Source of the DNA: a virus
Taxonomy: Duplodnaviria; Heunggongvirae; Uroviricota; Caudoviricetes
Strand: one strand, 5' to 3'
Virus record (IMG/VR): IMGVR_UViG_2695420863_000013
Length of the DNA: 13,420 bases
Numbering within the stretch: position 1 is the stretch's first letter; each line of letters begins with the position of its first letter. This document shows, piece after piece, positions 2,709 through 13,372 of the stretch. The notes under the pieces were generated by a model. That model was not told the DNA's origin, did no database searches, and saw nothing but the letters and a program-made list of their open reading frames with translations. The position numbers and the translations under genes are program-made.

Positions 2709-3764
2709 TTATGCTTTCCACTTCAGGACGCCCGAATTTCTCGCGTGCATTAAAAAACGAATCAGCAACAACAGCTGGCTGCCGTGTTTTTCTTCAAAAT
2801 CTTTTACCCCGGCGTGCAGTTCGTTATGACATTTACGGCACAGCGGAATAACAAACAAATCGTCAGCCTTCGTTCCCATCCCTCCTAGTCCATGACCAAT
2901 GATGTGATGCGGATCATCTGCCTGATTGTCACACGTCATGCATTTCTGCGTTTTTACCCAGCGCGTGTATACGGGCATCTCTTCCCGTTGTGGTTTCTGG
3001 CGCTGGAGATACTGAGCCGGTGACTCCGGATCAACGGCAATGCTTACCACCGTCTTTTCCTGTGGCGGGTTTTGCTGGTGGGCGTGAGGCATCGGCGCAA
3101 GATTTTTTGTGCGCTGCTTCAGTATGCTGGTGGCGGTCTGCTCTCCCGGCACGATGTCGCTTTCACGGTACATTGAGCGGATTTTTTCCGCACGCAACCC
3201 CAGCGAACGACGTAATACCGCTTCCGGTAGCGCGTCCGCCACCTGATTGCGGACCGCCCACCAGGATAATTCAGCCAGCGATAATTCCCGTTCCTGCGAG
3301 CCATTCATTGCATGGCGTATGACGTCAATCATCCATGCAGACAGGTTTTGGTGAGCAAGTTGCCCGAGTGATTCGGAGGTCTGGTCGCGCAGCTGGTTGT
3401 CGCAGTGCCAGCACAACACCATTGCGCCGGTACCATAACGGTGAATGACGGTTTCACTGTGGTGATAATCGCCGTGTGGCCACTGGCAGGATTTAACATG
3501 GCGCAGTAACCAATCAGACAATGCGCCAGCGCCACCAGCAGCACGAATCACTCGTTCGTCGCTGAAAAATGGCAGTAATGATTTATCCTCCGCCAGCGGC
3601 TGGCGAACGGCAGGAACGACCCCGGACGGCAGATTACGCATGCTTTTCGGTTCCGGCTCCACCAGTACCCGGGTATTGTGGAATACCGGCATGGATTCAC
3701 GGCCCGGCTTAACGATCACCAGCCCGAGTTCCGGTACCAGAACAGGTCGAAGTAATACCCGCAC
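2709..3764 (-). CDS. DUF968-type phage protein (YdfU-like) with a C-terminal HNH nuclease motif
   Basis: 351-aa ORF with GTG start at 3764 preceded by GGAGGT Shine-Dalgarno. C-terminus has CMTCDNQ...HHIIGH...CRKCHNELH (CxxC...HH...CxxCHxxxH, HNH-like). Same position as ydfU in the Qin prophage (quuQ-ydfU-rem-hokD), as recalled. Confidence 0.6.
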   Translation of the reverse strand: MRVLLRPVLVPELGLVIVKPGRESMPVFHNTRVLVEPEPKSMRNLPSGVVPAVRQPLAEDKSLLPFFSDERVIRAAGGAGALSDWLLRHVKSCQWPHGDYHHSETVIHRYGTGAMVLCWHCDNQLRDQTSESLGQLAHQNLSAWMIDVIRHAMNGSQERELSLAELSWWAVRNQVADALPEAVLRRSLGLRAEKIRSMYRESDIVPGEQTATSILKQRTKNLAPMPHAHQQNPPQEKTVVSIAVDPESPAQYLQRQKPQREEMPVYTRWVKTQKCMTCDNQADDPHHIIGHGLGGMGTKADDLFVIPLCRKCHNELHAGVKDFEEKHGSQLLLLIRFLMHARNSGVLKWKA

Positions 3765-4402: not shown

Positions 4403-5101
4403 CTAACCTAACTGGTGGGCGTGAGGCATCGGCGCAAGATTTTTTGTGCGCTGCTTCAGTATGCTGGTGGCGGTCTGCTCTCCCGGCACGATGTCGCTTT
4501 CACGGTACATTGAGCGGATTTTTTCCGCACGCAACCCCAGCGAACGACGTAATACCGCTTCCGGTAGCGCGTCCGCCACCTGATTGCGGACCGCCCACCA
4601 GGATAATTCAGCCAGAGATAATTCACGCTCCTGCGTACCGCTTATTGCGTGACCGATGACGTCAATCATCCATGCTGACAGGTTTTGATGAGCAAGTTGC
4701 CCGAGTGATTCGGAGGTCTGGTCACGCAACTGGTTGTCGCAGTGCCAGCACAACACCATTGCGCCGGTACCATAACGGTGAATGACGGTTTCGCTGTGAT
4801 GATAATCGCCGTGTGGCCACTGGCAGGATTTAATATGGCGCAACAGCCAGTCAGACAATGCACCAGCACCACCAGCAGCACGAATCACCCGTGCGTTACT
4901 GAAAAACGGCAGCAATGTTTTGTCTTCCACCAGCGGCTGGCGAACGGCAGGAACGACCCCGGACGGCAGATTACGCATGCTTTTCGGTTCCGGCTCCACC
5001 AGTACCCGGGTATTGTGGAATACCGGCATGGATTCACGGCCCGGCTTAACGATCACCAGCCCGAGTTCCGGTACCAGAACAGGTCGAAGTAATACCCGCA
5101 C
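4403..5101 (-). CDS. Truncated DUF968 paralog (232 aa; lacks the C-terminal HNH region), probable gene remnant
   Basis: N-terminal ~230 aa nearly identical to the 2709..3764 protein, then ends at TAG 4403-4405 exactly where homology to the hok cassette begins. GTG start at 5101 abuts the upstream gene's stop. Confidence 0.6.
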   Translation of the reverse strand: MRVLLRPVLVPELGLVIVKPGRESMPVFHNTRVLVEPEPKSMRNLPSGVVPAVRQPLVEDKTLLPFFSNARVIRAAGGAGALSDWLLRHIKSCQWPHGDYHHSETVIHRYGTGAMVLCWHCDNQLRDQTSESLGQLAHQNLSAWMIDVIGHAISGTQERELSLAELSWWAVRNQVADALPEAVLRRSLGLRAEKIRSMYRESDIVPGEQTATSILKQRTKNLAPMPHAHQLG

Positions 5102-5420
5102 GTTACCTCCAGATGCGTTGCTGGAATGTGCGGGACGGACGCGGTGGGCGTTCGGAATAAGGGAGTCTGACGTAGATTATCCAGTGACGATAATCGAGGG
5201 TGAGGGCTTTCCTAAACTCATATCCACGTCTGCGGTAGTTATGAATCAGCCATTCGGCCTGTTCTTCAGTACAGGGATCGTGCTGATACCAGTCATATTT
5301 GAATGCGTGAGAACGCCACCCGTGCCTGCTGGCAAAGGCAGAATCAGAATTGCGAAATTTGAAATTATGCGCCATTGTCATCTCCAATGGCGCTGCAGGT
5401 TGCCAGTTGTTCAGGCTGGC
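4413..5420. repeat. Direct repeat copy B of the same ~1-kb segment
   Basis: Pairs with 3067-4080; junction with the hok cassette at 4404-4412. Confidence 0.7.
5103..5375 (-). CDS. Small basic phage protein (Rem-like position), copy 2 of a paralogous pair
   Basis: ATG at 5375 (MAHNFKFRNSDSAFASRHGWRS...) with GGAG 6 nt upstream; C-terminal half closely matches copy 1 (…LDYRHWII.VRLPYSERPPRPSRTFQQRIWR). Confidence 0.5.
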   Translation of the reverse strand: MAHNFKFRNSDSAFASRHGWRSHAFKYDWYQHDPCTEEQAEWLIHNYRRRGYEFRKALTLDYRHWIIYVRLPYSERPPRPSRTFQQRIWR

Positions 5421-5765: not shown

Positions 5766-6869
5766 TCAAACAATCTGGAAAATATTTCTTGGATTTGTAA
5801 TAGGTCTGTTGATGGAGAACAACTCACGAATTAAATCTTGGCTCAAGCCAGTTTTCATAAGAATTCTTAGCCAGGTTGCATCATCCAGCATTTCAATCGC
5901 CTCGGCCAGCATGCCGGGTTCTTCAGGGCGCAAAAGTTCATCACCAGGTTCAACTCTCGTATACCCTCTGGAATTAAGATGCATATAGCCAGTTCTTGCC
6001 TGTTCCTGGGTCAATAAGCCTAATGCGCTGGCTCGATAAATACACATTTTAAGGCTGATTTTCCATCTAAGTTTAAATTCAACCAGAGCATTCCAGTCGA
6101 ATTGCTTACCTCGTATTCGTGGAAATTCTTTAATGAAAGATAACCTGGGAACTAATAAGGCGCTCGAAAAGTGATCGGCTTGTGATTCCGTAAGTTTATC
6201 ACCTGTCGTTATGCCCTCATGCATTACTAAATGCCCTAATTCATGACCTAAATCAGAGCGAAATCTACATATGCTTTTTTTAACATTGTTCCTGATGATA
6301 ACAGGCCTGTTATTGTGAACAGTAAAAGCATCAACACGATCATCGACTCCCGTAACATGCGCAACGATTACCCCTAAACTCTCCGCCAATTTAACCATTG
6401 ATGATATAGGGCCAAGACCTAAATTCCAGGCACGGCGACAATCTTCTGCCACTCGCTCAATATCATTCGGAGTAAGTAATTCAGCCCCTGGGTGCTCCGG
6501 TATGTTAACGTCAGGAAATTCGATTTCACCTTCAACAGCAGAAATTATAATATTAAGAATCTCAGCCCTGGCCAATACACTATTAGTCAGCGTTTGAGTC
6601 CTGGACTTCTTACTCCGAAAATGGCAGACATCACTTTCCAGAGCGTATTTTCGTTCAGTAAAAAGAAAACTGGACTTAATCATAAGCGCTGAAGATATTA
6701 ACTCAAGACATTGCTCCGATGGCCTGCACCCCTTCTCCAGTTTGCTAACGAATTGCTTTGTCTTGCCAATTTTTTCGGCTAACTCTTCACAAGAAAGCCC
6801 AACAGCCATTCTCGCTAGTTTGAGCTTATCACCCCGATACTCAGTGAAGTTATTCACCTGATGTTCCAT
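5766..6869 (-). CDS. XRE-family HTH fused to an ImmA/IrrE-type (COG2856, Peptidase_M78-like) zinc metallopeptidase
   Basis: N-terminal HTH (LKLARMAVGLSCEELAEKIGKTKQFVSKLEKG). HEXXH zinc motif in RSDLGHELGHLVMHEG, and the downstream signature ESQADHFSSALLVP typical of COG2856. Start probably ATG 6869 (track gives GTG 6872); overlaps the upstream gene by about 20 nt. AT-rich relative to flanks. Confidence 0.75.
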   Translation of the reverse strand: MEHQVNNFTEYRGDKLKLARMAVGLSCEELAEKIGKTKQFVSKLEKGCRPSEQCLELISSALMIKSSFLFTERKYALESDVCHFRSKKSRTQTLTNSVLARAEILNIIISAVEGEIEFPDVNIPEHPGAELLTPNDIERVAEDCRRAWNLGLGPISSMVKLAESLGVIVAHVTGVDDRVDAFTVHNNRPVIIRNNVKKSICRFRSDLGHELGHLVMHEGITTGDKLTESQADHFSSALLVPRLSFIKEFPRIRGKQFDWNALVEFKLRWKISLKMCIYRASALGLLTQEQARTGYMHLNSRGYTRVEPGDELLRPEEPGMLAEAIEMLDDATWLRILMKTGLSQDLIRELFSINRPITNPRNIFQIV

Positions 6870-7500
6870 CACTGCTCACATCCAAATCTTTATCCTTCGT
6901 ACGCCGACGAAGAGGCACCTTATTAATCTCCGCTTCGTCAGGGAGTGTGTTATAATCAAGAGGCATAAGCGGCATCGATGCTGTAGATTGATGAGAAACT
7001 ATACTAATCTGAGCACCATAAGTATTAAATCCAACAAGAGCTACCTCCCAACGAGGCAGTGTGGACTCTAATTCACCATCGCCCTCTTCGGATAAAAAAG
7101 GCTCAGCTATGACTCGCCATGTAATATCTTGCTCAGCCTCAACATCACCAAACAATGAGAGCTGCTCATACTCTACTTTATTTCGACGCAGACGATGTTT
7201 CTTTTTGGGGTTATTAATGCAATCTTTGGTAAATTGTAGCGGAACTTTATTTAAAGCAACTACATAGTCCAACCCCTTGGAAATCATCTCAAGGCCAGGA
7301 ATTGCATCTTCATTTTGAATAAGATGATTTCTGACCCAATCATAAGCCCTTACACCTTCAGACCAGTTGCTGTCTAATGCGTGCTTATGATAGTACAGCT
7401 GCTCAAGTACGTTAGCGATCTCCGCCAACAAGTGGCGAACATAGTTTTCAGCAAGATAAGGTTGAAATTCCCAACAAGGAGCTAACTGATTTTCATTCAT
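6850..7500 (-). CDS. Hypothetical 216-aa protein, first gene of the two-gene module (candidate effector/toxin)
   Basis: ATG at 7500 (MNENQLAPCWEFQPYLAENYVRHLL...). No recognisable motif; has a basic patch KKKHRLRRNK and an acidic C-terminus. AT-rich. Translationally overlaps the HTH-peptidase gene. Confidence 0.55.
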   Translation of the reverse strand: MNENQLAPCWEFQPYLAENYVRHLLAEIANVLEQLYYHKHALDSNWSEGVRAYDWVRNHLIQNEDAIPGLEMISKGLDYVVALNKVPLQFTKDCINNPKKKHRLRRNKVEYEQLSLFGDVEAEQDITWRVIAEPFLSEEGDGELESTLPRWEVALVGFNTYGAQISIVSHQSTASMPLMPLDYNTLPDEAEINKVPLRRRTKDKDLDVSSDGTSGE

Positions 7501-7597: not shown

Positions 7598-7858
7598 AAG
7601 TGCGGGTGCGTTGAGGATGCCTGGCACATCAGAGGTGGCGGGAGATTACTCCCCCGCCGGGTCTCTTACTCCTCAGGTTCGTAAGCTGTGAAGACAGCGA
7701 CCTCCGTCTGGCCGGTTCGGATTCGTACCTCGCAGAGGTCTTTCCTCGTTACCAGTGCCGTCACAATGACGGTTAAACAGATGACGATCAGGGCGATTAA
7801 CATCGCCTTTTGCTGCTTCATAGCCTGCTTCCCCTTGCCTTTCGGCACGTAAGAGGCT
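7580..7858. repeat. hok cassette repeat (terminator hairpin + hok + ~40 nt upstream), second copy; first copy at 4126-4404
   Basis: About 279 bp nearly identical between 4126-4404 and 7580-7858, including the hairpin and the whole hok ORF; homology ends at ggctaacct on the upstream side in both copies. Confidence 0.75.
7666..7821 (-). CDS. hok: Hok-family type I toxin (HokD/RelF-like), copy 2
   Basis: 51-aa MKQQKAMLIALIVICLTVIVTALVTRKDLCEVRIRTGQTEVAVFTAYEPEE, identical to HokD/RelF as recalled. Start set at the MKQQ methionine with a GGGGAAG Shine-Dalgarno-like element upstream. Confidence 0.85.
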   Translation of the reverse strand: MKQQKAMLIALIVICLTVIVTALVTRKDLCEVRIRTGQTEVAVFTAYEPEE

Positions 7859-8058
7859 AACCTACATTTGTGAGACATAGATTGGGCCTCAGATTAATGT
7901 TAAGCGTCTTGCAGGACGCGAAATGTTAACTGGGGCTTTTCTCTATCTGCCTTTCAGTGTTCATGCCTGAGACAGATAGCCTCAAGCACCCGCAGCCATT
8001 CTACTTAACTCACGTCACCTCGCCAATATGAAATCAATCAGAAAGGTGATCCATAAAA

Positions 8059-8745
8059 TCACTCCTTCTCTTCTTTTCCGTAGTGGAGTTGGCCAATTTT
8101 GATAAGAGGGCGTCCCTGAGATTTGCGGTGTAGATTGGTATCGCGCAGAGAATACACACAGCCACAATATTCCTGCTGATAGAATTTTTCGCGCTTGCTG
8201 ATTTCAATCATACGGGACGAGCCGCCCTGCTTGCGCCAGTTATAATCCCAGTACACCATACCCGGATAATGCGCAACAGCTCGCCGCCCACACTCGTTAA
8301 CCTGCTGCATATTTTTCCAGCGTGAAATGCCCAGTGAACTGCTGATCACACTGAAACCATTTTCAGCAGCGTACAACGCTGTCCGCTCAAAACGCATGTC
8401 AAAACACATGGTACAACGGATCCCCCTCTCAGGCTCCCATTCCATTCCTTTGGCACGTTCAAACCAGTTGTCGGTGTCGTAATCAGCATCGATAAACGGC
8501 ACGCCGTGTTGTTCAGCAAAGCGAATATTTTCATCCTTACGAATTAAATACTCTTTCTGAGGATGAATGTTCGGGTTGTAGAAAAAGATGGTGTAGTCGA
8601 TTCCCGAGGCCTGAAGCGCCTCCATCACTTCACCGGAACATGGAGCACAGCAAGAGTGCAGTAGTAGTTTGTTTGCCCCGTTTGGGAGCTCCAATTTAGG
8701 CCGTTTGAAATCAGCAATAGTCATAAATATTTTTATTGGGGTCAT
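8059..8745 (-). CDS. DUF208/QueH-like protein (putative epoxyqueuosine reductase family)
   Basis: 228-aa ORF with an N-terminal [11 protein letters not shown] motif and a C-terminal [11 protein letters not shown] motif, which I recall as characteristic of QueH. No good Shine-Dalgarno at either candidate ATG (8745 or 8724). Confidence 0.55.
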
Positions 8746-10143: not shown

Positions 10144-10809
10144 TCAAATAAAACCAGCTGCCTTCCGGCGTTCGTATTCCTGTTTCAGCCGTTCAATTGG
10201 CGTTGGCCCTTGCGGGTGTTTCGCCCCTTCCAGTTGTCGTCGCACTGGCGGAACACTCATCCCGTTACCAACATGCTTTGCCCATTTCGTCAGTTGCCGT
10301 TCCGCAAGTCGTTTTAACTCACCCTGCGTCATCTGGCGCTCAATCCCTCTGGTACGCATTTCGAGGCAGATGTGGTACAGCACAGGCTGAGGCCACGGAT
10401 ATTTGTCGCTTCCGTCATATCGCCAGGACTCATCACGCCAGCGGCGGTACTCCTCCATCACAGCATCCACCGTCAGGCCAAATGGATTGGCCCCGCTTTC
10501 TGAAATCAGCGCCACAAACTCAGCCAGGTCCGGAGGCCATGTTTCACCCGCCCGGCAGCGGTCCATGCACTGGCGGCAGACCTGTCGGATTTGCTGCTCA
10601 GTCATCGCGCCAATCTGTGCAATCCAGAGCTTCGAAGGTGCGGCCCCGTTCTTCTGGGTCCAGCGGTTCGAATAAACCTCCCCCATGAGTTCCCACAGCT
10701 TCCAGACCGTTTCCGTCGCTGATAAATCCGTTTTCACGTTCCCACTGCTCACGTGCTGCCCGAATTTCCTGAACTGCCCGTGATGCGGTGCCACCTGGTG
10801 CTGCTGCAT
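10144..10809 (-). CDS. Replication protein P-like (lambda P family helicase loader)
   Basis: C-terminal region (…DKYPWPQPVLYHICLEMRTRGIERQMTQGELKRLAERQL…PPV…) resembles lambda P as recalled. ATG 10809 has a GGGGG Shine-Dalgarno; this start lies 211 nt inside the upstream O-like ORF, so the true start is uncertain. Confidence 0.65.
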   Translation of the reverse strand: MQQHQVAPHHGQFRKFGQHVSSGNVKTDLSATETVWKLWELMGEVYSNRWTQKNGAAPSKLWIAQIGAMTEQQIRQVCRQCMDRCRAGETWPPDLAEFVALISESGANPFGLTVDAVMEEYRRWRDESWRYDGSDKYPWPQPVLYHICLEMRTRGIERQMTQGELKRLAERQLTKWAKHVGNGMSVPPVRRQLEGAKHPQGPTPIERLKQEYERRKAAGFI

Positions 10810-11644
10810 GGTTTACCCCCTTGCTGACTGGCTTAACCTGCGCCCTGACGTGATTTACGTGACGGGCGAATTTCTGCTCCCACTGAACCTGCGTGAAAAC
10901 TTTCCCCTCCGCTGCCCAGTAGTCCCGGAAAGCGGCAAGTTCAGCAGGTGTAAATTCCGGCTCCGGCAAAGCCATCCCCCACAACGCAGCCCGTCGTCGA
11001 AAATCCGGCGACGGATGCCAGTCATCGACCATCGGAAATTTCCCGATGGGTTCGCTCAGTCCATCCAGGGATGCAGGTTCTGCTGCCTGCAACGGCGTAC
11101 CACTCGACTCACTGGTCGGAGCACTCTCGCGCACGTGCGCGTTATGTGTGGGGTTTAATTCTTTATCTGTATCTTTATCTGTCGTGACTCGTCGTGACAT
11201 GTCGTGACATATGCGTGACTCGTCGTGACACCCCTCATTCTGTTTTCGTAATTTTTCCCTCTCGCGCTGCGCTCTCTTGCGCTCTGCCGGGGATTTCGCG
11301 GTTTGTGAAACGTTGCCATTGTCCTCTTTCAGTACCTGGCGTTTTTCCCATCCGGTGATTAAATCTCCATCAAGTACCCGCCCCTGCATTGCCTGTAAAA
11401 TTGAATCAATTACTTCTTCCGTCACATCAAGCGCACTTGCTAAATCTTCCGTCGTGACATCAATGTGACCACGTAGTGACACGCCGTGACATGTCGTGAC
11501 ATTTCGTGACGCGCTCACCAGAAGGTGGATATACACTGCCATCACTGTTGCAATTGGCTGCCCTGACACCCTGGCAATTGTTCGCCACTTAGGGTCATTT
11601 GGCATGTCATGCCATAATCTGAGCCAGGCGTTAGCCATACTCAC
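10598..11644 (-). CDS. Replication initiator (O-like position) containing internal iteron arrays
   Basis: 348-aa ORF directly upstream of the P-like gene and downstream of the YdaT-like gene. GAGGTG Shine-Dalgarno with GTG 11644 or ATG 11638 as start. Two clusters of periodic repeats lie inside it. The low-complexity C-terminal tail overlaps the P-like gene and may not be real coding sequence. Confidence 0.55.
   Translation of the reverse strand: MSMANAWLRLWHDMPNDPKWRTIARVSGQPIATVMAVYIHLLVSASRNVTTCHGVSLRGHIDVTTEDLASALDVTEEVIDSILQAMQGRVLDGDLITGWEKRQVLKEDNGNVSQTAKSPAERKRAQREREKLRKQNEGCHDESRICHDMSRRVTTDKDTDKELNPTHNAHVRESAPTSESSGTPLQAAEPASLDGLSEPIGKFPMVDDWHPSPDFRRRAALWGMALPEPEFTPAELAAFRDYWAAEGKVFTQVQWEQKFARHVNHVRAQVKPVSKGVNHAAAPGGTASRAVQEIRAAREQWERENGFISDGNGLEAVGTHGGGLFEPLDPEERGRTFEALDCTDWRDD
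11150..11232. repeat. Candidate replication origin: AT-rich stretch with two CTTTATCTGT repeats, then five GTCGTGAC-type direct repeats at about 10-bp spacing
   Basis: GTCGTGAC (or a one-base variant) begins at 11181, 11191, 11201, 11213 and 11222, preceded by ttaattctttatctgtatctttatctgt. Located mid-gene in the O-like ORF, as ori-lambda is in O. Confidence 0.5.
11449..11510. repeat. Second array of six CGTGAC/GTGAC repeats at 10-11 bp spacing (iteron-like)
   Basis: GTGAC cores end at 11458, 11469, 11480, 11490, 11500 and 11510, in the 5' part of the O-like ORF. Confidence 0.45.
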
Positions 11645-11709: not shown

Positions 11710-12135
11710 TCAATGCACAGCCACAATATTTCCTGCAGGGCCACCACGATTCATCTGGTTGAAACCAGCGATCGCCACTGCGACAAAATCATCAGCGTCT
11801 CTCACCAGTCGTTCCCGCGTCTCCACCAGCTCCCGAAAATAAGCTGAACTGTGGCTGCGCATTCGGGCCACCAGCAGAGGCGGCATTGCTTTTTCGATCG
11901 CTGGTAACAACGCCTGAATTTTTTTAACCGCATCAGGAGTGTCTTTCTCCACCCAGCGGAAAATTTTCTGGGTATTGCGAGCCAGGGCTTCCGGATGGCT
12001 GTCGTCATATAATTCCGGGAACGTCATACCAAGCTCAAAATAAGCCCGGGTTATTTCAGCTGCCGGAACTTTTTCACCGTCCGGATGCGCCCAGGCATTC
12101 ATCGCCATGCGGATGTGCTCATGCCTGATTTTCAT
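11710..12135 (-). CDS. YdaT-like protein (CII-position protein of Rac-type prophages)
   Basis: 141-aa MKIRHEHIRMAMNAW...KIQALLPAIEKAMPP...NIVAVH. Start and end pattern and length match Rac YdaT as recalled. GGAG Shine-Dalgarno 9 nt upstream; overlaps the upstream HTH gene by 17 nt. Confidence 0.6.
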   Translation of the reverse strand: MKIRHEHIRMAMNAWAHPDGEKVPAAEITRAYFELGMTFPELYDDSHPEALARNTQKIFRWVEKDTPDAVKKIQALLPAIEKAMPPLLVARMRSHSSAYFRELVETRERLVRDADDFVAVAIAGFNQMNRGGPAGNIVAVH

Positions 12136-12394
12136 GAATCAACTCCGATGCATTTGGTGTGTTAGCCTTGAATCCAACAGGTAAGCCGTCGGTTGGATTC
12201 GGGTAAATATCAGGCCGGAGTTCATGAGGTGTAACCTCGAAATTCGTTACTTCAGCAACACGTAATGCTTTTTCAGGGCTGAATCTTTCATAGCCCCCCA
12301 GCACTCGACTTACATGCACCTGAGATAAACCCGTTAGCTTCCCAAACTGTAGCTGGGTGATATGTTTCTCTTTTAAATAGTCTCTTAAGTTCAT
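12119..12394 (-). CDS. Cro/YdaS-like HTH regulator
   Basis: ATG at 12394 (MNLRDYLKEKHITQLQFGKLTGLSQVHVSRVLGG...) with GAAGG Shine-Dalgarno (track ORF starts at TTG 12400). HTH motif; first gene of the leftward early operon, divergent from the repressor. Confidence 0.65.
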   Translation of the reverse strand: MNLRDYLKEKHITQLQFGKLTGLSQVHVSRVLGGYERFSPEKALRVAEVTNFEVTPHELRPDIYPNPTDGLPVGFKANTPNASELIHENQA

Positions 12395-12501
12395 AGCCAA
12401 CCTTCTACGTTATGCCTCGAGCAAATATTAGCCCCGCTAATTTTAAAGATCAATAGCCAGACTATCTTTGATAATATTGGTAAAACAAATAAACTCTATG
12501 T
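12395..12501. promoter_or_regulatory. Divergent immunity-switch region (operators and promoters between the Cro-like gene and the repressor)
   Basis: 107-bp AT-rich intergenic region between divergent HTH genes; contains the palindrome ATTAGC-CCC-GCTAAT (12427-12441) and a TAATAT -10-like element upstream of the repressor start. Confidence 0.5.
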
Positions 12502-12963
12502 ATGAAAAAAACACGCGAAGTGATTGCAACTCCAGAAGCGAGCAAGAATTTAAAAGCCGCATGGAATGCAAGAAAAAAAGAGCTGAAGCTGACTCAAGAG
12601 CTGGCGGCTGAGTTGTTGGGATTCGAATCTCAAGGCACCGTTAGCCAGTATCTGAACGGCAAGATACCGGTAAATACCGACGCTGCGCTAAAATTTGCGG
12701 CTCTGTTAAAGGTAAAACCAGAGGACATTCGAGAAGACCTTAAAGACTTAATGAATTATGTAAGATCATCAGATACTTATGATGATAACTTTTCAGGCAA
12801 AGGATGGAGGCTGGTCAATGAAGAACAGGCAGAGTTACTTAACCTCTTCGAGATTCTACCTGCGTCAGAAAAAGCCAAACTCCTTAACCAGCTACGTGGA
12901 CTAAACAAGCTCTACGAGGAAGCCTTCGAGAACATGCTGGCACTAAAGAAACGTAACCAGTAG
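12502..12963 (+). CDS. Prophage repressor, RacR-like (XRE-type HTH)
   Basis: 153-aa MKKTREVIATPEASKNLKAAWNARKKELKLTQELAAELLGFESQGTVSQYLNGKIPV...; HTH near the N-terminus; divergent from the Cro/YdaS-like gene; followed by a strong terminator. Confidence 0.65.
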   Translation: MKKTREVIATPEASKNLKAAWNARKKELKLTQELAAELLGFESQGTVSQYLNGKIPVNTDAALKFAALLKVKPEDIREDLKDLMNYVRSSDTYDDNFSGKGWRLVNEEQAELLNLFEILPASEKAKLLNQLRGLNKLYEEAFENMLALKKRNQ

Positions 12964-12989
12964 CCACCGCTCACTACCCCATCCACAAC

Positions 12990-13019
12990 AAAAAAACCGA
13001 CGTCTTAGTCGGTTTTTTT
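12990..13019. terminator. Bidirectional intrinsic terminator after the repressor gene
   Basis: A6 - AACCGAC-GTCTTA-GTCGGTT - T7, a perfect 7-bp stem flanked by A and T tracts. Confidence 0.7.
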
Positions 13020-13116
13020 GTGCCATAACTTCTGCAAATCAGCTGTATAACTAATATTTTTCCCTTGAAAAAACATTTACATAGTTACCAAAACAAAAAT
13101 ATCATACGCCATACTG

Positions 13117-13145
13117 TTGACTTAAAATATCCGCGTTACTAATAT
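13117..13145 (+). promoter_or_regulatory. Strong sigma-70 promoter (TTGACT -17- TAATAT), candidate pL-like early promoter
   Basis: -35 TTGACT at 13117-13122, 17-nt spacer, -10 TAATAT at 13140-13145; about 70 nt upstream of the 51-aa ORF. Confidence 0.55.
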
Positions 13146-13216
13146 TTCTATCAAGAACAGCACGGCGCTGTAGGTTTTAGTTCCGCCACCCGGCGTTAAG
13201 GGGAAATGAGGTCAGC

Positions 13217-13372
13217 ATGGATACTATCGAGCTTGGCAACAACGAATCTCTGGTGTACGGCGTGTTTCCCAACCAGGACGGCACATTCACCGCGATGACG
13301 TATACCAAAAGCAAAACGTTTAAAACCGAAAATGGTGCCCGTCGCTGGCTGGAAAGAAACTCAGGTGAGTGA
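13217..13372 (+). CDS. Small protein (51 aa), first gene of the rightward operon beyond the repressor (YdaF/YdaG-like position)
   Basis: ATG 13217 with GAGG 5 nt upstream; MDTIELGNNESLVYGVFPNQDGTFTAMTYTKSKTFKTENGARRWLERNSGE; TGA at 13370-13372. Below the ORF-track size cutoff. Confidence 0.5.
   Translation: MDTIELGNNESLVYGVFPNQDGTFTAMTYTKSKTFKTENGARRWLERNSGE

Follow-up and report, generated by a model that had tools for sequence, protein, structure and literature searches.

The divergent gene cluster at positions 11710–12963 of a 13,420-nt stretch of DNA from a virus of the Caudoviricetes (the whole stretch is termed here the window) raises a question of identity: is it a Rac-type immunity region, possibly one that behaves as a toxin-antitoxin-like switch, as an earlier note had proposed, or a lysis-lysogeny control region of a more general kind? 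The results below indicate that it is very probably the ordinary lysis-lysogeny control region (immunity switch) of a lambda-like E. coli prophage, with analogues of CI, Cro, and CII.

All genes, coordinates, the 17-nt gene overlap, and the palindrome described in the earlier note are present as described, and open reading frames and Pfam matches bear out its outline of an immunity region in which a repressor gene diverges from an operon that comprises a helix-turn-helix (HTH) gene and then a YdaT-like gene and runs into replication genes. The gene order is Q, RusA, DUF968, nin-region genes, P, O, ydaT, cro-like gene, divergent repressor gene, terminator, PL, and ydfA-like gene. The operon does lead into O and P: Pfam identifies, downstream in the PR operon, an O-like replication initiator with a DnaT DNA-binding domain (10598–11644, minus strand; Pfam DnaT, 1e-17; NCBIfam DnaT, 7e-28, under the cut-off of that model) and a lambda-P-like replication protein (10144–10809, minus strand; Pfam Phage_lambda_P, 5e-16, in agreement with the annotation of strain 042; 153 aa from the shorter start used by RefSeq). 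Because of their PDB and Pfam matches, the three genes of the immunity region itself are far beyond chance. Prophages in ~140 complete E. coli genomes, those of strains 042 and ABU 83972 among them, match the region at 99.9% identity. In strain 042, int/xis and ompW flank the prophage, whose leftward operon is Qin-like (DUF1391/ydfA, then ydfB, ydfC, and dicB).

The gene at 11710–12135 (minus strand; 141 aa), which has the Shine-Dalgarno sequence GGAG 7 nt upstream of its start, encodes a true YdaT, the putative CII analogue. Its product matches Pfam YdaT_toxin (PF06254) with 39.1 bits (cut-off 21), matches PDB 3C4R (E 3e-91, ~97% identity) and PDB 8BT1 (E 4e-79, 83–85% identity, full length), is 83% identical to YdaT of Sp12/CP-933P, and is 32% identical over its full length to YdaT of Rac (E 2e-14). 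It fits the description of the YdaT family, whose members have a POU-like HTH with a conserved Arg60 and a long C-terminal tetramerisation helix (PMC9986795); the DNA-contact arginine R60 is conserved here in the motif F59-R60-W61. Across the ydaT start codon lies a YdaT-box, TTGATT-CATGAA-AATCAg (12125–12142, minus strand), which differs by one mismatch from the footprinted CP-933P sequence TTGATTN6AATCAA, has no counterpart elsewhere in the window at 2 or fewer mismatches, and aligns column for column with the boxes of Sp11, Sp12/CP-933P, Rac K-12, and Rac-SA53. YdaT footprints on the box have been reported (PMC9986795; PMC11879457); the YdaT proteins of CP-933P and Rac bind it and switch on a promoter that reads leftward into the repressor gene (PMC9986795; PMC8630535; PMC11879457), and a box with one mismatch is functional in Rac (PMC11879457). 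By analogy, we predict that 12125–12142 is a high-affinity YdaT site driving a PRE-like leftward promoter. A promoter scan shows no consensus-like plus-strand promoter inside the cro-like gene (12143–12394), and the repressor-cro intergenic region, where Rac has secondary YdaT sites, contains none within 3 mismatches of the box. Together with the first codons of ydaT, the YdaT-box makes up a conserved ~35-bp block, at which modules have evidently been exchanged.

The first gene of the rightward operon (12119–12394, minus strand; 91 aa) overlaps ydaT by 17 nt, at 12119–12135. Its reading frame is open from a TTG at 12400 (12119–12400), but the ATG at 12394, which is used by RefSeq and has a GAAGG Shine-Dalgarno sequence 6 nt upstream, is the better start. 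The description of the product as Cro/YdaS-like holds, by a narrow margin: the protein matches Pfam HTH_3 and, at 30.8 bits, marginally exceeds the gathering cut-off of 30 for Pfam YdaS_toxin (PF15943), and its gene occupies the expected position. The product aligns with YdaS of CP-933P (28% identity, E 1.6e-8) and with YdaS of Rac (32% over 50 aa, E 5e-7), matches the 'antirepressor protein Cro' of PDB 8CO2/8C7K (E 0.004) and the Cro analogues of Gifsy and other phages, and is named 'YdaS family helix-turn-helix protein' by RefSeq. No similarity to DicC was found. From its sequence, we classify the protein, marginally, as a YdaS-family Cro analogue.

The divergent gene (12502–12963, plus strand; Pfam HTH_3, 1e-09) encodes a 153-aa repressor, the presumptive CI analogue, composed of two parts. 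The N-terminal domain (approximately residues 8–81, extending to 82 in some matches) is a lambda-CI-like HTH domain: a repressor profile searched against PDB matches the lambda CI N-terminal domain (E 8e-10; 29–32% identity), and Foldseek aligns this domain of the repressor model with 1LMB/3KZ3 at TM 0.75–0.83. The C-terminal domain is of the helical DicA/PaaR2 type, with the motif ELLxLFxxLPxxE (ELLxLFxxLPxxEQ in the form that defines membership); hhalign aligns the repressor profile with DicA (probability 94.9%, E 4.7e-8, 117 columns) and with PaaR2 (probability 89.6%, 97 columns). The 153 aa yield no Pfam match to the S24 peptidase (PF00717), and similarity to lambda CI is confined to the N-terminal domain, which places the protein outside the lambda CI/LexA-type cleavable class and, with its HTH_3 domain and C-terminal helical motif, among the peptidase-less repressors of the DicA/PaaR2 type. 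Relatives that bear PF00717 align over only ~45–50% of the repressor query, and the CI proteins of Stx2a phages carry the same N-terminal domain (50% identity), there fused to an S24 peptidase. The score of the repressor against the NCBIfam DicA model NF007257 (35.1 bits, E 9.9e-9) falls under the curated cut-off of 101, and the repressor is therefore not a member of the DicA subfamily. The predicted structure is helical throughout, with a confident N-terminal domain and a C-terminal half at pLDDT 42–58, so that the fold search is silent on the tail; for PaaR2, the structures found in PDB are of the N-terminal domain alone (7NKV, 8C3K, 8C3L), with none of the C-terminal domain. Repressors of this type are found in ~3% of complete E. 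coli genomes, and Enterobacter, Hafnia, and Serratia have them too. The proposed likeness to RacR is rejected: BLASTP of the repressor against RacR gives E=26, hhalign with a 10-sequence profile gives a probability of 1.0% (E 0.053, 20 columns), and RacR itself has no HTH_3 match, only a sub-threshold match to HTH_17.

The lack of an S24 domain makes induction through RecA-stimulated repressor self-cleavage unlikely. Segment 11700–13420 contains no LexA box; the two exact matches to CTGT-N8-ACAG are at 5259 and 6307. A protein with HTH and M78 (ImmA/IrrE-like) domains, encoded at 5766–6872, was considered as a repressor-cleaving protease and rejected, since it forms a RosmerTA defence pair with its neighbour (PADLOC: RmrA, 6e-105; RmrT, 5e-25).

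Between the cro-like and repressor genes lies a 107-bp divergent control region (12395–12501), equivalent to OR. The trio of genes, with a spacer of 106–107 bp and the promoter elements, is kept in homologues from Hafnia, Serratia, and metagenomes. Toward the repressor gene, the promoter scan reports a PRM-like promoter, TTGATA-16-TAAACT (12468–12495, plus strand), whose −10 element ends 6 nt before the repressor ATG, with no Shine-Dalgarno sequence. This arrangement, in which a −10 element TAnAAT is followed by 6 nt and ATG, is kept in 5/5 homologues and implies a leaderless repressor mRNA, as for lambda cI and paaR2 (PMC8630535). Toward cro-ydaT-O-P, we read from the sequence a PR-like promoter (12425–12453, minus strand) with −35 element TTGATC (12448–12453), a 17-nt spacer, and −10 element TAATAT (12425–12430); it matches consensus at 8/12 positions and therefore falls under the threshold of the scan, which does not report it. 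Both hexamers are kept in four of the five homologous loci.

The palindrome ATTAGC-CCC-GCTAAT, which the earlier note had singled out as a candidate operator, is present exactly at 12427–12441. By itself it is not significant: when the 107-bp region was shuffled 2000 times, 466 shuffles (23%) contained a perfect palindrome with 6-bp arms and a spacer of 0–8 nt. Its significance derives instead from its position over the PR −10 element and from conservation, in related loci, of the 21-bp dyad that holds it (AATATTAGC-CCC-GCTAATTTT; 12424–12444; 8/9 arm matches), which overlaps the PR −10 element and spacer. The dyad pattern, AATAT-N11-ATATT, occurs in the window at PR, at PL, and at one other site; derived from the same sequences in which its conservation is counted, it is found at the same positions in Rac-SA53, Hafnia L007, and L011, and is missing from the most divergent locus (Serratia) and from OR of L013. 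The inner G:C pair of the palindrome is lost in Rac-SA53, despite a 99% identical repressor. Judged from these sequences, it is reasonable to regard the dyad with its palindrome as a candidate OR.

Downstream of the repressor gene is a bidirectional intrinsic terminator (12988–13021; perfect 14-bp arms, a 6-nt loop, an A-run before and a T-run after); homologues also have a hairpin with a T-run. Beyond it, the promoter scan identifies a PL-like promoter, TTGACT-17-TAATAT (13117–13145, plus strand), which reads into a DUF1391 (YdfA/YdaF-like) gene at 13217 and is kept in the Hafnia, L013, and Rac-SA53 loci. Overlapping its −10 element is a candidate OL, AATATCCGCGTTACTAATATT (13126–13146), which fits the dyad pattern perfectly. 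Across the two control regions there are three copies of the 9-mer CTAATATTT (12423–12431, 13051–13059, and 13139–13147), a count reached in only 22 of 2000 shuffles.

These elements suggest a mechanism, in which the assignment of protein to dyad, leaderless translation, the location of PRE, and the route of induction follow experiments on CP-933P and Rac and the precedent of lambda. The repressor, a DNA-binding domain of the lambda CI type joined to a helical oligomerisation tail of the DicA/PaaR2 type, would be a functional CI analogue, made as a leaderless mRNA from the weak PRM-like promoter; it would bind the 21-bp dyads covering the −10 elements of PR and PL and thereby silence transcription rightward through cro-ydaT-O-P and leftward through the ydfA-like operon. 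Upon failure of repression, the YdaS-family protein would act in a Cro-like manner on the same control region. A YdaT tetramer would act in a CII-like manner, binding the YdaT-box over its own start codon and activating a weak leftward PRE-type promoter, with antisense transcription through cro into the repressor gene; such transcription would favour the establishment or maintenance of repression.

Comparison with known systems indicates that the region is a new combination of alleles in a switch of an already known type. The closest characterised system is CP-933P/Sp12 of E. coli O157:H7 (paaR2/ydaS/ydaT; PMC8630535; PMC9986795; PDB 8BT1) and not Rac, whose layout the earlier note had invoked. 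CP-933P has the same layout (divergent region 97 bp there vs. 107 bp here), a YdaT that is 83% identical, an identical TTGATT-CATGAA-AATCA over the start codon, a Cro analogue of the same YdaS family, a repressor with the same type of C-terminal helical domain, and a repressor start that is likewise apparently leaderless. It differs in that the repressor N-terminal domain here is lambda-CI-like, with no similarity to that of PaaR2 detectable by BLASTP; in that the repressor gene is followed there by the paaA2-parE2 toxin-antitoxin genes and here by the terminator; in its operator repeats (GTTTAGTAA-type there vs. AATAT-N11-ATATT here); in its cro/ydaT overlap (4 nt there vs. 17 nt here); and in its replication genes. 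With Rac of K-12 (PMC5700373; PMC5700377; PMC11879457) the region shares the racR/ydaS/ydaT gene order, members of the YdaS and YdaT families (both of which align significantly with their Rac counterparts), and the YdaT-box (ATGATTCATGAAAATCAA in Rac), and in Rac itself YdaT turns on a reverse promoter from which repressor is made. The layout is nevertheless that of lambdoid cI/cro/cII regions in general and not specific to Rac; RacR is unrelated to the repressor here, the YdaT proteins are only distantly similar, ydaS and ydaT are 22 nt apart in Rac and overlap here, and the leftward operon and replication genes are of other types. Qin of K-12 (dicA/dicC/ydfX) resembles the region in a repressor, DicA, that aligns over its full length and shares the C-terminal motif ELLELFxxLPESE, in a DUF1391 ydfA-like gene that opens the leftward operon, and in YdfX, a truncated relative (36% over 95 aa) of the YdaT that is full-length here; it differs in the subfamily of the repressor and in DicC, which is of the P22_Cro type. 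Lambda shares the functional layout, with PR, PRM, PL, and candidate operators over −10 regions, the homologous repressor N-terminal domain, and a repressor mRNA that here is probably leaderless. It differs in its S24 autocleavage domain, in Cro and CII proteins unrelated in sequence to the analogues here, and in its N gene, none being evident beside PL here; YdaT also reads its site differently, since its 222-symmetric tetramer binds a repeat that is inverted and not direct (PMC9986795). All three classical regulators are in all likelihood present as non-lambda alleles, and we have high confidence in reading the region as a lambdoid immunity switch.

We consider it improbable that the region is instead a toxin-antitoxin-like or 'toxin-repressor' module, in which YdaS and/or YdaT would kill or arrest the host upon loss of an addictive repressor. 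The idea draws on names (YdaS_toxin and YdaT_toxin in Pfam; 'toxin YdaT family protein' in RefSeq), on weak, sub-threshold matches of the Cro-like protein to HigA and HipB-type antitoxin models, and on Rac, where silencing of racR is lethal through ydaS/ydaT (PMC5700377; PMC5700373), derepressed YdaS and YdaT are toxic (PMC5700377; PMC11879457), and YdaT causes filamentation via rcsA (PMC11879457). Apart from these sub-threshold matches, the sequence gives no sign of a type II toxin-antitoxin system, in which a labile antitoxin would bind and neutralise a toxin with a cellular target and the complex would regulate its own operon. However, CP-933P YdaT is a non-toxic, DNA-binding activator; the authors of the CP-933P work, who showed YdaS and YdaT to be Cro and CII analogues, conclude that the pair is not a toxin-antitoxin system (PMC8630535; PMC9986795); and Jobling argues against such a system from genetic context (PMC5917428). 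Moreover, the pair precedes O and P, in exactly the places of cro and cII, and has kept the YdaT-box; neither protein matches a PADLOC model; and lambda CII is also toxic when overexpressed, a property that does not define a toxin. The close relatives have already been characterised as regulators and not as a toxin-antitoxin pair, and for both CP-933P and Rac published work assigns the trio the parts of CI, Cro, and CII; given the toxicity in Rac, some harm from the pair here is possible.

Still less probable is a decayed remnant, a cryptic prophage whose genes happen to have stayed intact and whose switch regulates nothing. Defective lambdoid prophages are numerous in E. coli, and CP-933P, Rac, and Qin are each cryptic. 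Yet the three reading frames, both promoters, the terminator, and the YdaT-box are all intact; 180 complete genomes match the immunity segment at 95% identity or more across at least 80% of its length; the cryptic switches of CP-933P and Rac remain functional regulators (PMC8630535; PMC11879457); and a prophage that retains PR-operon genes typically cannot do without such a repressor. Least probable of all is a Rac allele with a RacR homologue and Rac immunity specificity, which gains from the gene order and from the full-size Rac-like phage Rac-SA53, where the same repressor (99% identical) and the same Cro (96%) adjoin kilR, racC, recE, and recT and a ydaT of the Rac-K-12 type, but founders on the unrelatedness of the repressor to RacR, on the Qin-like leftward operon, and on replication genes of the DnaT-domain-O and lambda-P type in place of ydaU/ydaV.

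The preferred reading, a lambdoid immunity switch, has a speculative extension. About 55% of complete E. coli genomes carry YdaT alleles of the CP-933P type, at as many as 7 matching places in one genome, and YdaT proteins that share as little as 30% identity activate one another's boxes; the YdaT of one prophage could for this reason strengthen the repression of co-resident prophages with different immunities. We suggest, tentatively and as something rather doubtful, that the repressor is a natural chimera in which a DicA/PaaR2-type tail replaces S24 behind a lambda-CI-type domain, conferring RecA-blind immunity in combination with such reinforcement among co-resident prophages. If so, switching would need another route, for example an antirepressor or bistable noise as in CP-933P. 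The main importance of the results is for annotation: the 'toxin' label that Pfam and RefSeq attach to YdaS and YdaT is misleading, and the locus is best read as a switch equivalent to cI/cro/cII, with a YdaT allele that already has a crystal structure and a repressor that represents an uncharacterised immunity type, in which a lambda-CI-like DNA-binding domain is joined to a non-cleavable DicA/PaaR2-type tail.

The DNA in the window comes from the early region of an E. coli lambdoid prophage; its minus-strand gene order is Q antiterminator, RusA, DUF968, nin-region cargo, lambda-P-like, DnaT-domain O-like, a 141-aa YdaT-like ORF (11710-12135, -) and a Cro-like HTH ORF (12119-12394 or 12400, -). 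On the plus strand lie the 153-aa HTH ORF that encodes the repressor (12502-12963), downstream of it a hairpin terminator with perfect 14-bp arms (12988-13021) and, past the terminator, a DUF1391 ydfA/ydaF-like gene (13217-13372). Chromosomal prophages of E. coli 042, ABU 83972, VR50 and others match the 1.5 kb around the trio at 99.9% identity; in E. coli 042 the element is bounded by int/xis adjoining ompW. The earlier note, which had described a Rac-type immunity region, gave correct coordinates throughout, among them those of the 17-nt overlap and of the palindrome (12427-12441); its observation is confirmed and its interpretation supported in part only.

The start of the lambda-P-like gene (10144-10809, -) is uncertain: in the 221-aa ORF, Pfam aligns from residue 55 onwards, ahead of the RefSeq start (residue 69, giving 153 aa), and use of the long ORF would create a 212-nt overlap with the O-like gene. 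The nin region carries a RosmerTA anti-phage defence pair (5766-7500, -), comprising RmrT (6850-7500, -; PADLOC 4.6e-25) and RmrA, an HTH_3 plus Peptidase_M78 protein (5766-6872, -; PADLOC 6e-105); the E. coli 042 prophage has the same pair, where the annotation says no more than HTH protein and hypothetical protein. Also among the early/nin genes is a QueH-type epoxyqueuosine reductase homologue (8059-8745, -; Pfam 1.1e-65), which is variable cargo, since the E. coli 042 prophage has different small ORFs in the corresponding part. A hok/sok type I toxin-antitoxin locus (7666-7991, -) consists of a mok/hok ORF (7666-7878, -; Pfam HOK_GEF 3e-23) and sok RNA (7816-7991, -; Rfam 120.5 bits). Of two DUF968 ORFs (2709-3764 and 4403-5101, -), the second aligns with roughly the first third of the domain model only (positions 1-61 of 171) and resembles a truncated duplicate. 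Downstream of Q are an STnc100 sRNA (Rfam 100.8 bits) and a cluster of three tRNAs with anticodons CAT (Ile in the RefSeq annotation), Arg-TCG and Arg-TCT (254-426 and 1197-1446, -), an arrangement also seen in many Stx-type and lambdoid prophages.

The repressor is not RacR-like, as the earlier note had labelled it: comparison with RacR gives a BLASTP E-value of 26 and, with a 10-sequence profile, an hhalign probability of 1%. The same profile aligns end-to-end with DicA of the Qin prophage (94.9%, E 4.7e-8) and with PaaR2 of the O157:H7 cryptic prophage CP-933P (89.6%, E 1.9e-6), and all three proteins have the C-terminal helix motif ELLxLFxxLPxxE; the repressor itself scores far under the NCBIfam DicA cut-off. 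Homology to the lambda CI N-terminal domain covers residues 8-82 (profile E 8e-10), and the confident N-terminal half of the AlphaFold model superposes on the lambda CI structures 1LMB and 3KZ3 (TM 0.75-0.83, 29-32% identity). Relatives fall into two groups, full-length 153-aa proteins of E. coli, Enterobacter, Hafnia and Serratia, and longer CI proteins with an S24 peptidase that have only the N-terminal domain in common. Because of the DicA/PaaR2 alignment, the CI homology and the two groups of relatives, we conclude that the repressor joins a DNA-binding head of CI type to a non-cleavable tail of DicA/PaaR2 type, the tail being predicted helical with low confidence. The missing S24 domain implies that induction would proceed without RecA-mediated cleavage.

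The other two members of the trio do align with their Rac counterparts, as the earlier note had expected. The Cro-like protein, whose likely start is ATG 12394 (GAAGG Shine-Dalgarno 6 nt upstream; same start in RefSeq), is 32% identical to Rac YdaS across 50 residues and 28% identical to CP-933P YdaS (E 1.6e-8), with marginal Pfam YdaS membership (30.8 bits vs 30) and an HTH_3 match as well; it resembles Cro analogues of Stx2a phages, Gifsy-1/2 and others, and shows no similarity to DicC of Qin. The 141-aa protein passes the Pfam YdaT threshold (39.1 bits vs 21) and keeps the DNA-contact arginine (F59-R60-W61). It shares 32% identity along its whole length with Rac YdaT and 83-85% with CP-933P YdaT (8BT1), and differs little from 3C4R, a structural-genomics entry (E 3e-91). 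CP-933P YdaT is a POU-like HTH tetramer that footprints TTGATT-N6-AATCAA at the ydaS/ydaT junction and switches on a leftward PRE-type promoter (PMC9986795, PMC8630535). In Rac, YdaT binds ATGATTCATGAAAATCAA, a site that straddles the ATG of its own gene, and activates racR via a reverse promoter located in ydaS; each of the two YdaT proteins can also activate at the box of the other (PMC11879457). The window has a single match with at most two mismatches, the predicted YdaT-box TTGATTCATGAAAATCAG (12125-12142, -), which spans the ydaT ATG and aligns column by column with the boxes of Sp11, Sp12/CP-933P, Rac K-12 and the full-size Rac-like phage Rac-SA53.

The distribution of these modules is mosaic. 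The repressor-cro segment is present at 95% identity or more in 180 of 5426 complete E. coli genomes, and the ydaT segment, at 80% identity or more, in 2990 of the 5426, with up to seven matching places per genome. Rac-SA53 has the window-type repressor and Cro beside a Rac-type ydaT, its match beginning at 12112; other phages have the window-type ydaT and O with different cro genes, their matches stopping at 12140-12149 (12145 in the two best). The breakpoints thus flank a conserved block of ~35 bp, GATTCATGAAAATCA[AG]GCATGA[AG]CACATC, which contains the YdaT-box and is also a likely recombination linker between modules. The block (12112-12145) comprises the box and the first seven ydaT codons, occurs also in loci L004, L005, L001 and L006, and is nearly invariant in five otherwise differing immunity regions; it looks like a module-exchange linker. 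A 32-bp exact match also lies at a ydaT/HTH junction of an Actinobacillus phage.

The trio and its 106-107-bp divergent spacer are kept in homologous loci of Hafnia, Serratia and metagenomes, and the spacer alignment has three conserved features: a predicted rightward promoter, PR (-35 TTGATC, 12448-12453; -10 TAATAT, 12425-12430), a predicted repressor promoter (TTGATA-16-TAAACT, 12468-12495) with a conserved weak -35 and TAnAAT -10, and an invariant 6-nt gap from the latter -10 to the ATG. This gap, which holds no Shine-Dalgarno, would be the signature of a leaderless repressor mRNA, of the kind established for paaR2 and lambda cI (PMC8630535). A conserved PL-like promoter (TTGACT-17-TAATAT, 13117-13145) is predicted downstream of the terminator. 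The leader past it (13150-13216), with the sequence ACAGCACGGCGCTGTAGGT ... CCCGGCG..A.GGG, is conserved among divergent loci (L007, L013 and L006 equivalents) and contains a small hairpin (13157-13171); a nut-like or attenuator role is possible for the leader, although no N-like gene is evident. The palindrome proposed as an operator in the earlier note forms the centre of a 21-bp dyad, AATATTAGC-CCC-GCTAATTTT (12424-12444), over the PR -10. Its outer pattern, AATAT-N11-ATATT, has a perfect copy over the PL -10 (13126-13146) and one further match only in the 13.4 kb; it recurs at the corresponding places of PR and PL in Rac-SA53 and in Hafnia L007 and L011, L013 has it at PL, and it is absent from the 58%-identical Serratia locus. 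The 9-mer CTAATATTT has three copies across the two control regions, a count reached in 22 of 2000 shuffles; the 6-3-6 palindrome on its own is unremarkable (23% of shuffles). The dyads are thus reasonable but unproven candidate operators, and the statistic is partly circular in that the pattern came from these same sequences.

The best-supported reading, by analogy with the CP-933P and Rac experiments and from the conserved anatomy, is a switch equivalent to cI/cro/cII. The repressor would occlude PR and PL, the YdaS-family protein would serve as the Cro-like counter-repressor, and YdaT, a CII-like activator, would bind the predicted YdaT-box and drive transcription that runs antisense to cro and on into the gene of the repressor. 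The Pfam "toxin" names of YdaS and YdaT trace to a 2007 prediction. That the pair is a toxin-antitoxin system, a behaviour that the earlier note had raised as a possibility, appears very improbable: derepressed Rac ydaS/ydaT is harmful (PMC5700377, PMC5700373) and Rac YdaT causes cell filamentation through rcsA activation (PMC11879457), but CP-933P YdaT, 83% identical to the window protein, was not toxic, its authors concluded that YdaS-YdaT is not a toxin-antitoxin system (PMC8630535), and Jobling argued the same from context (PMC5917428). The repressor subtype is uncharacterised; the switch logic, YdaT structure and YdaT operator are already published. We conclude that this is a well-known kind of system in a new combination of alleles.
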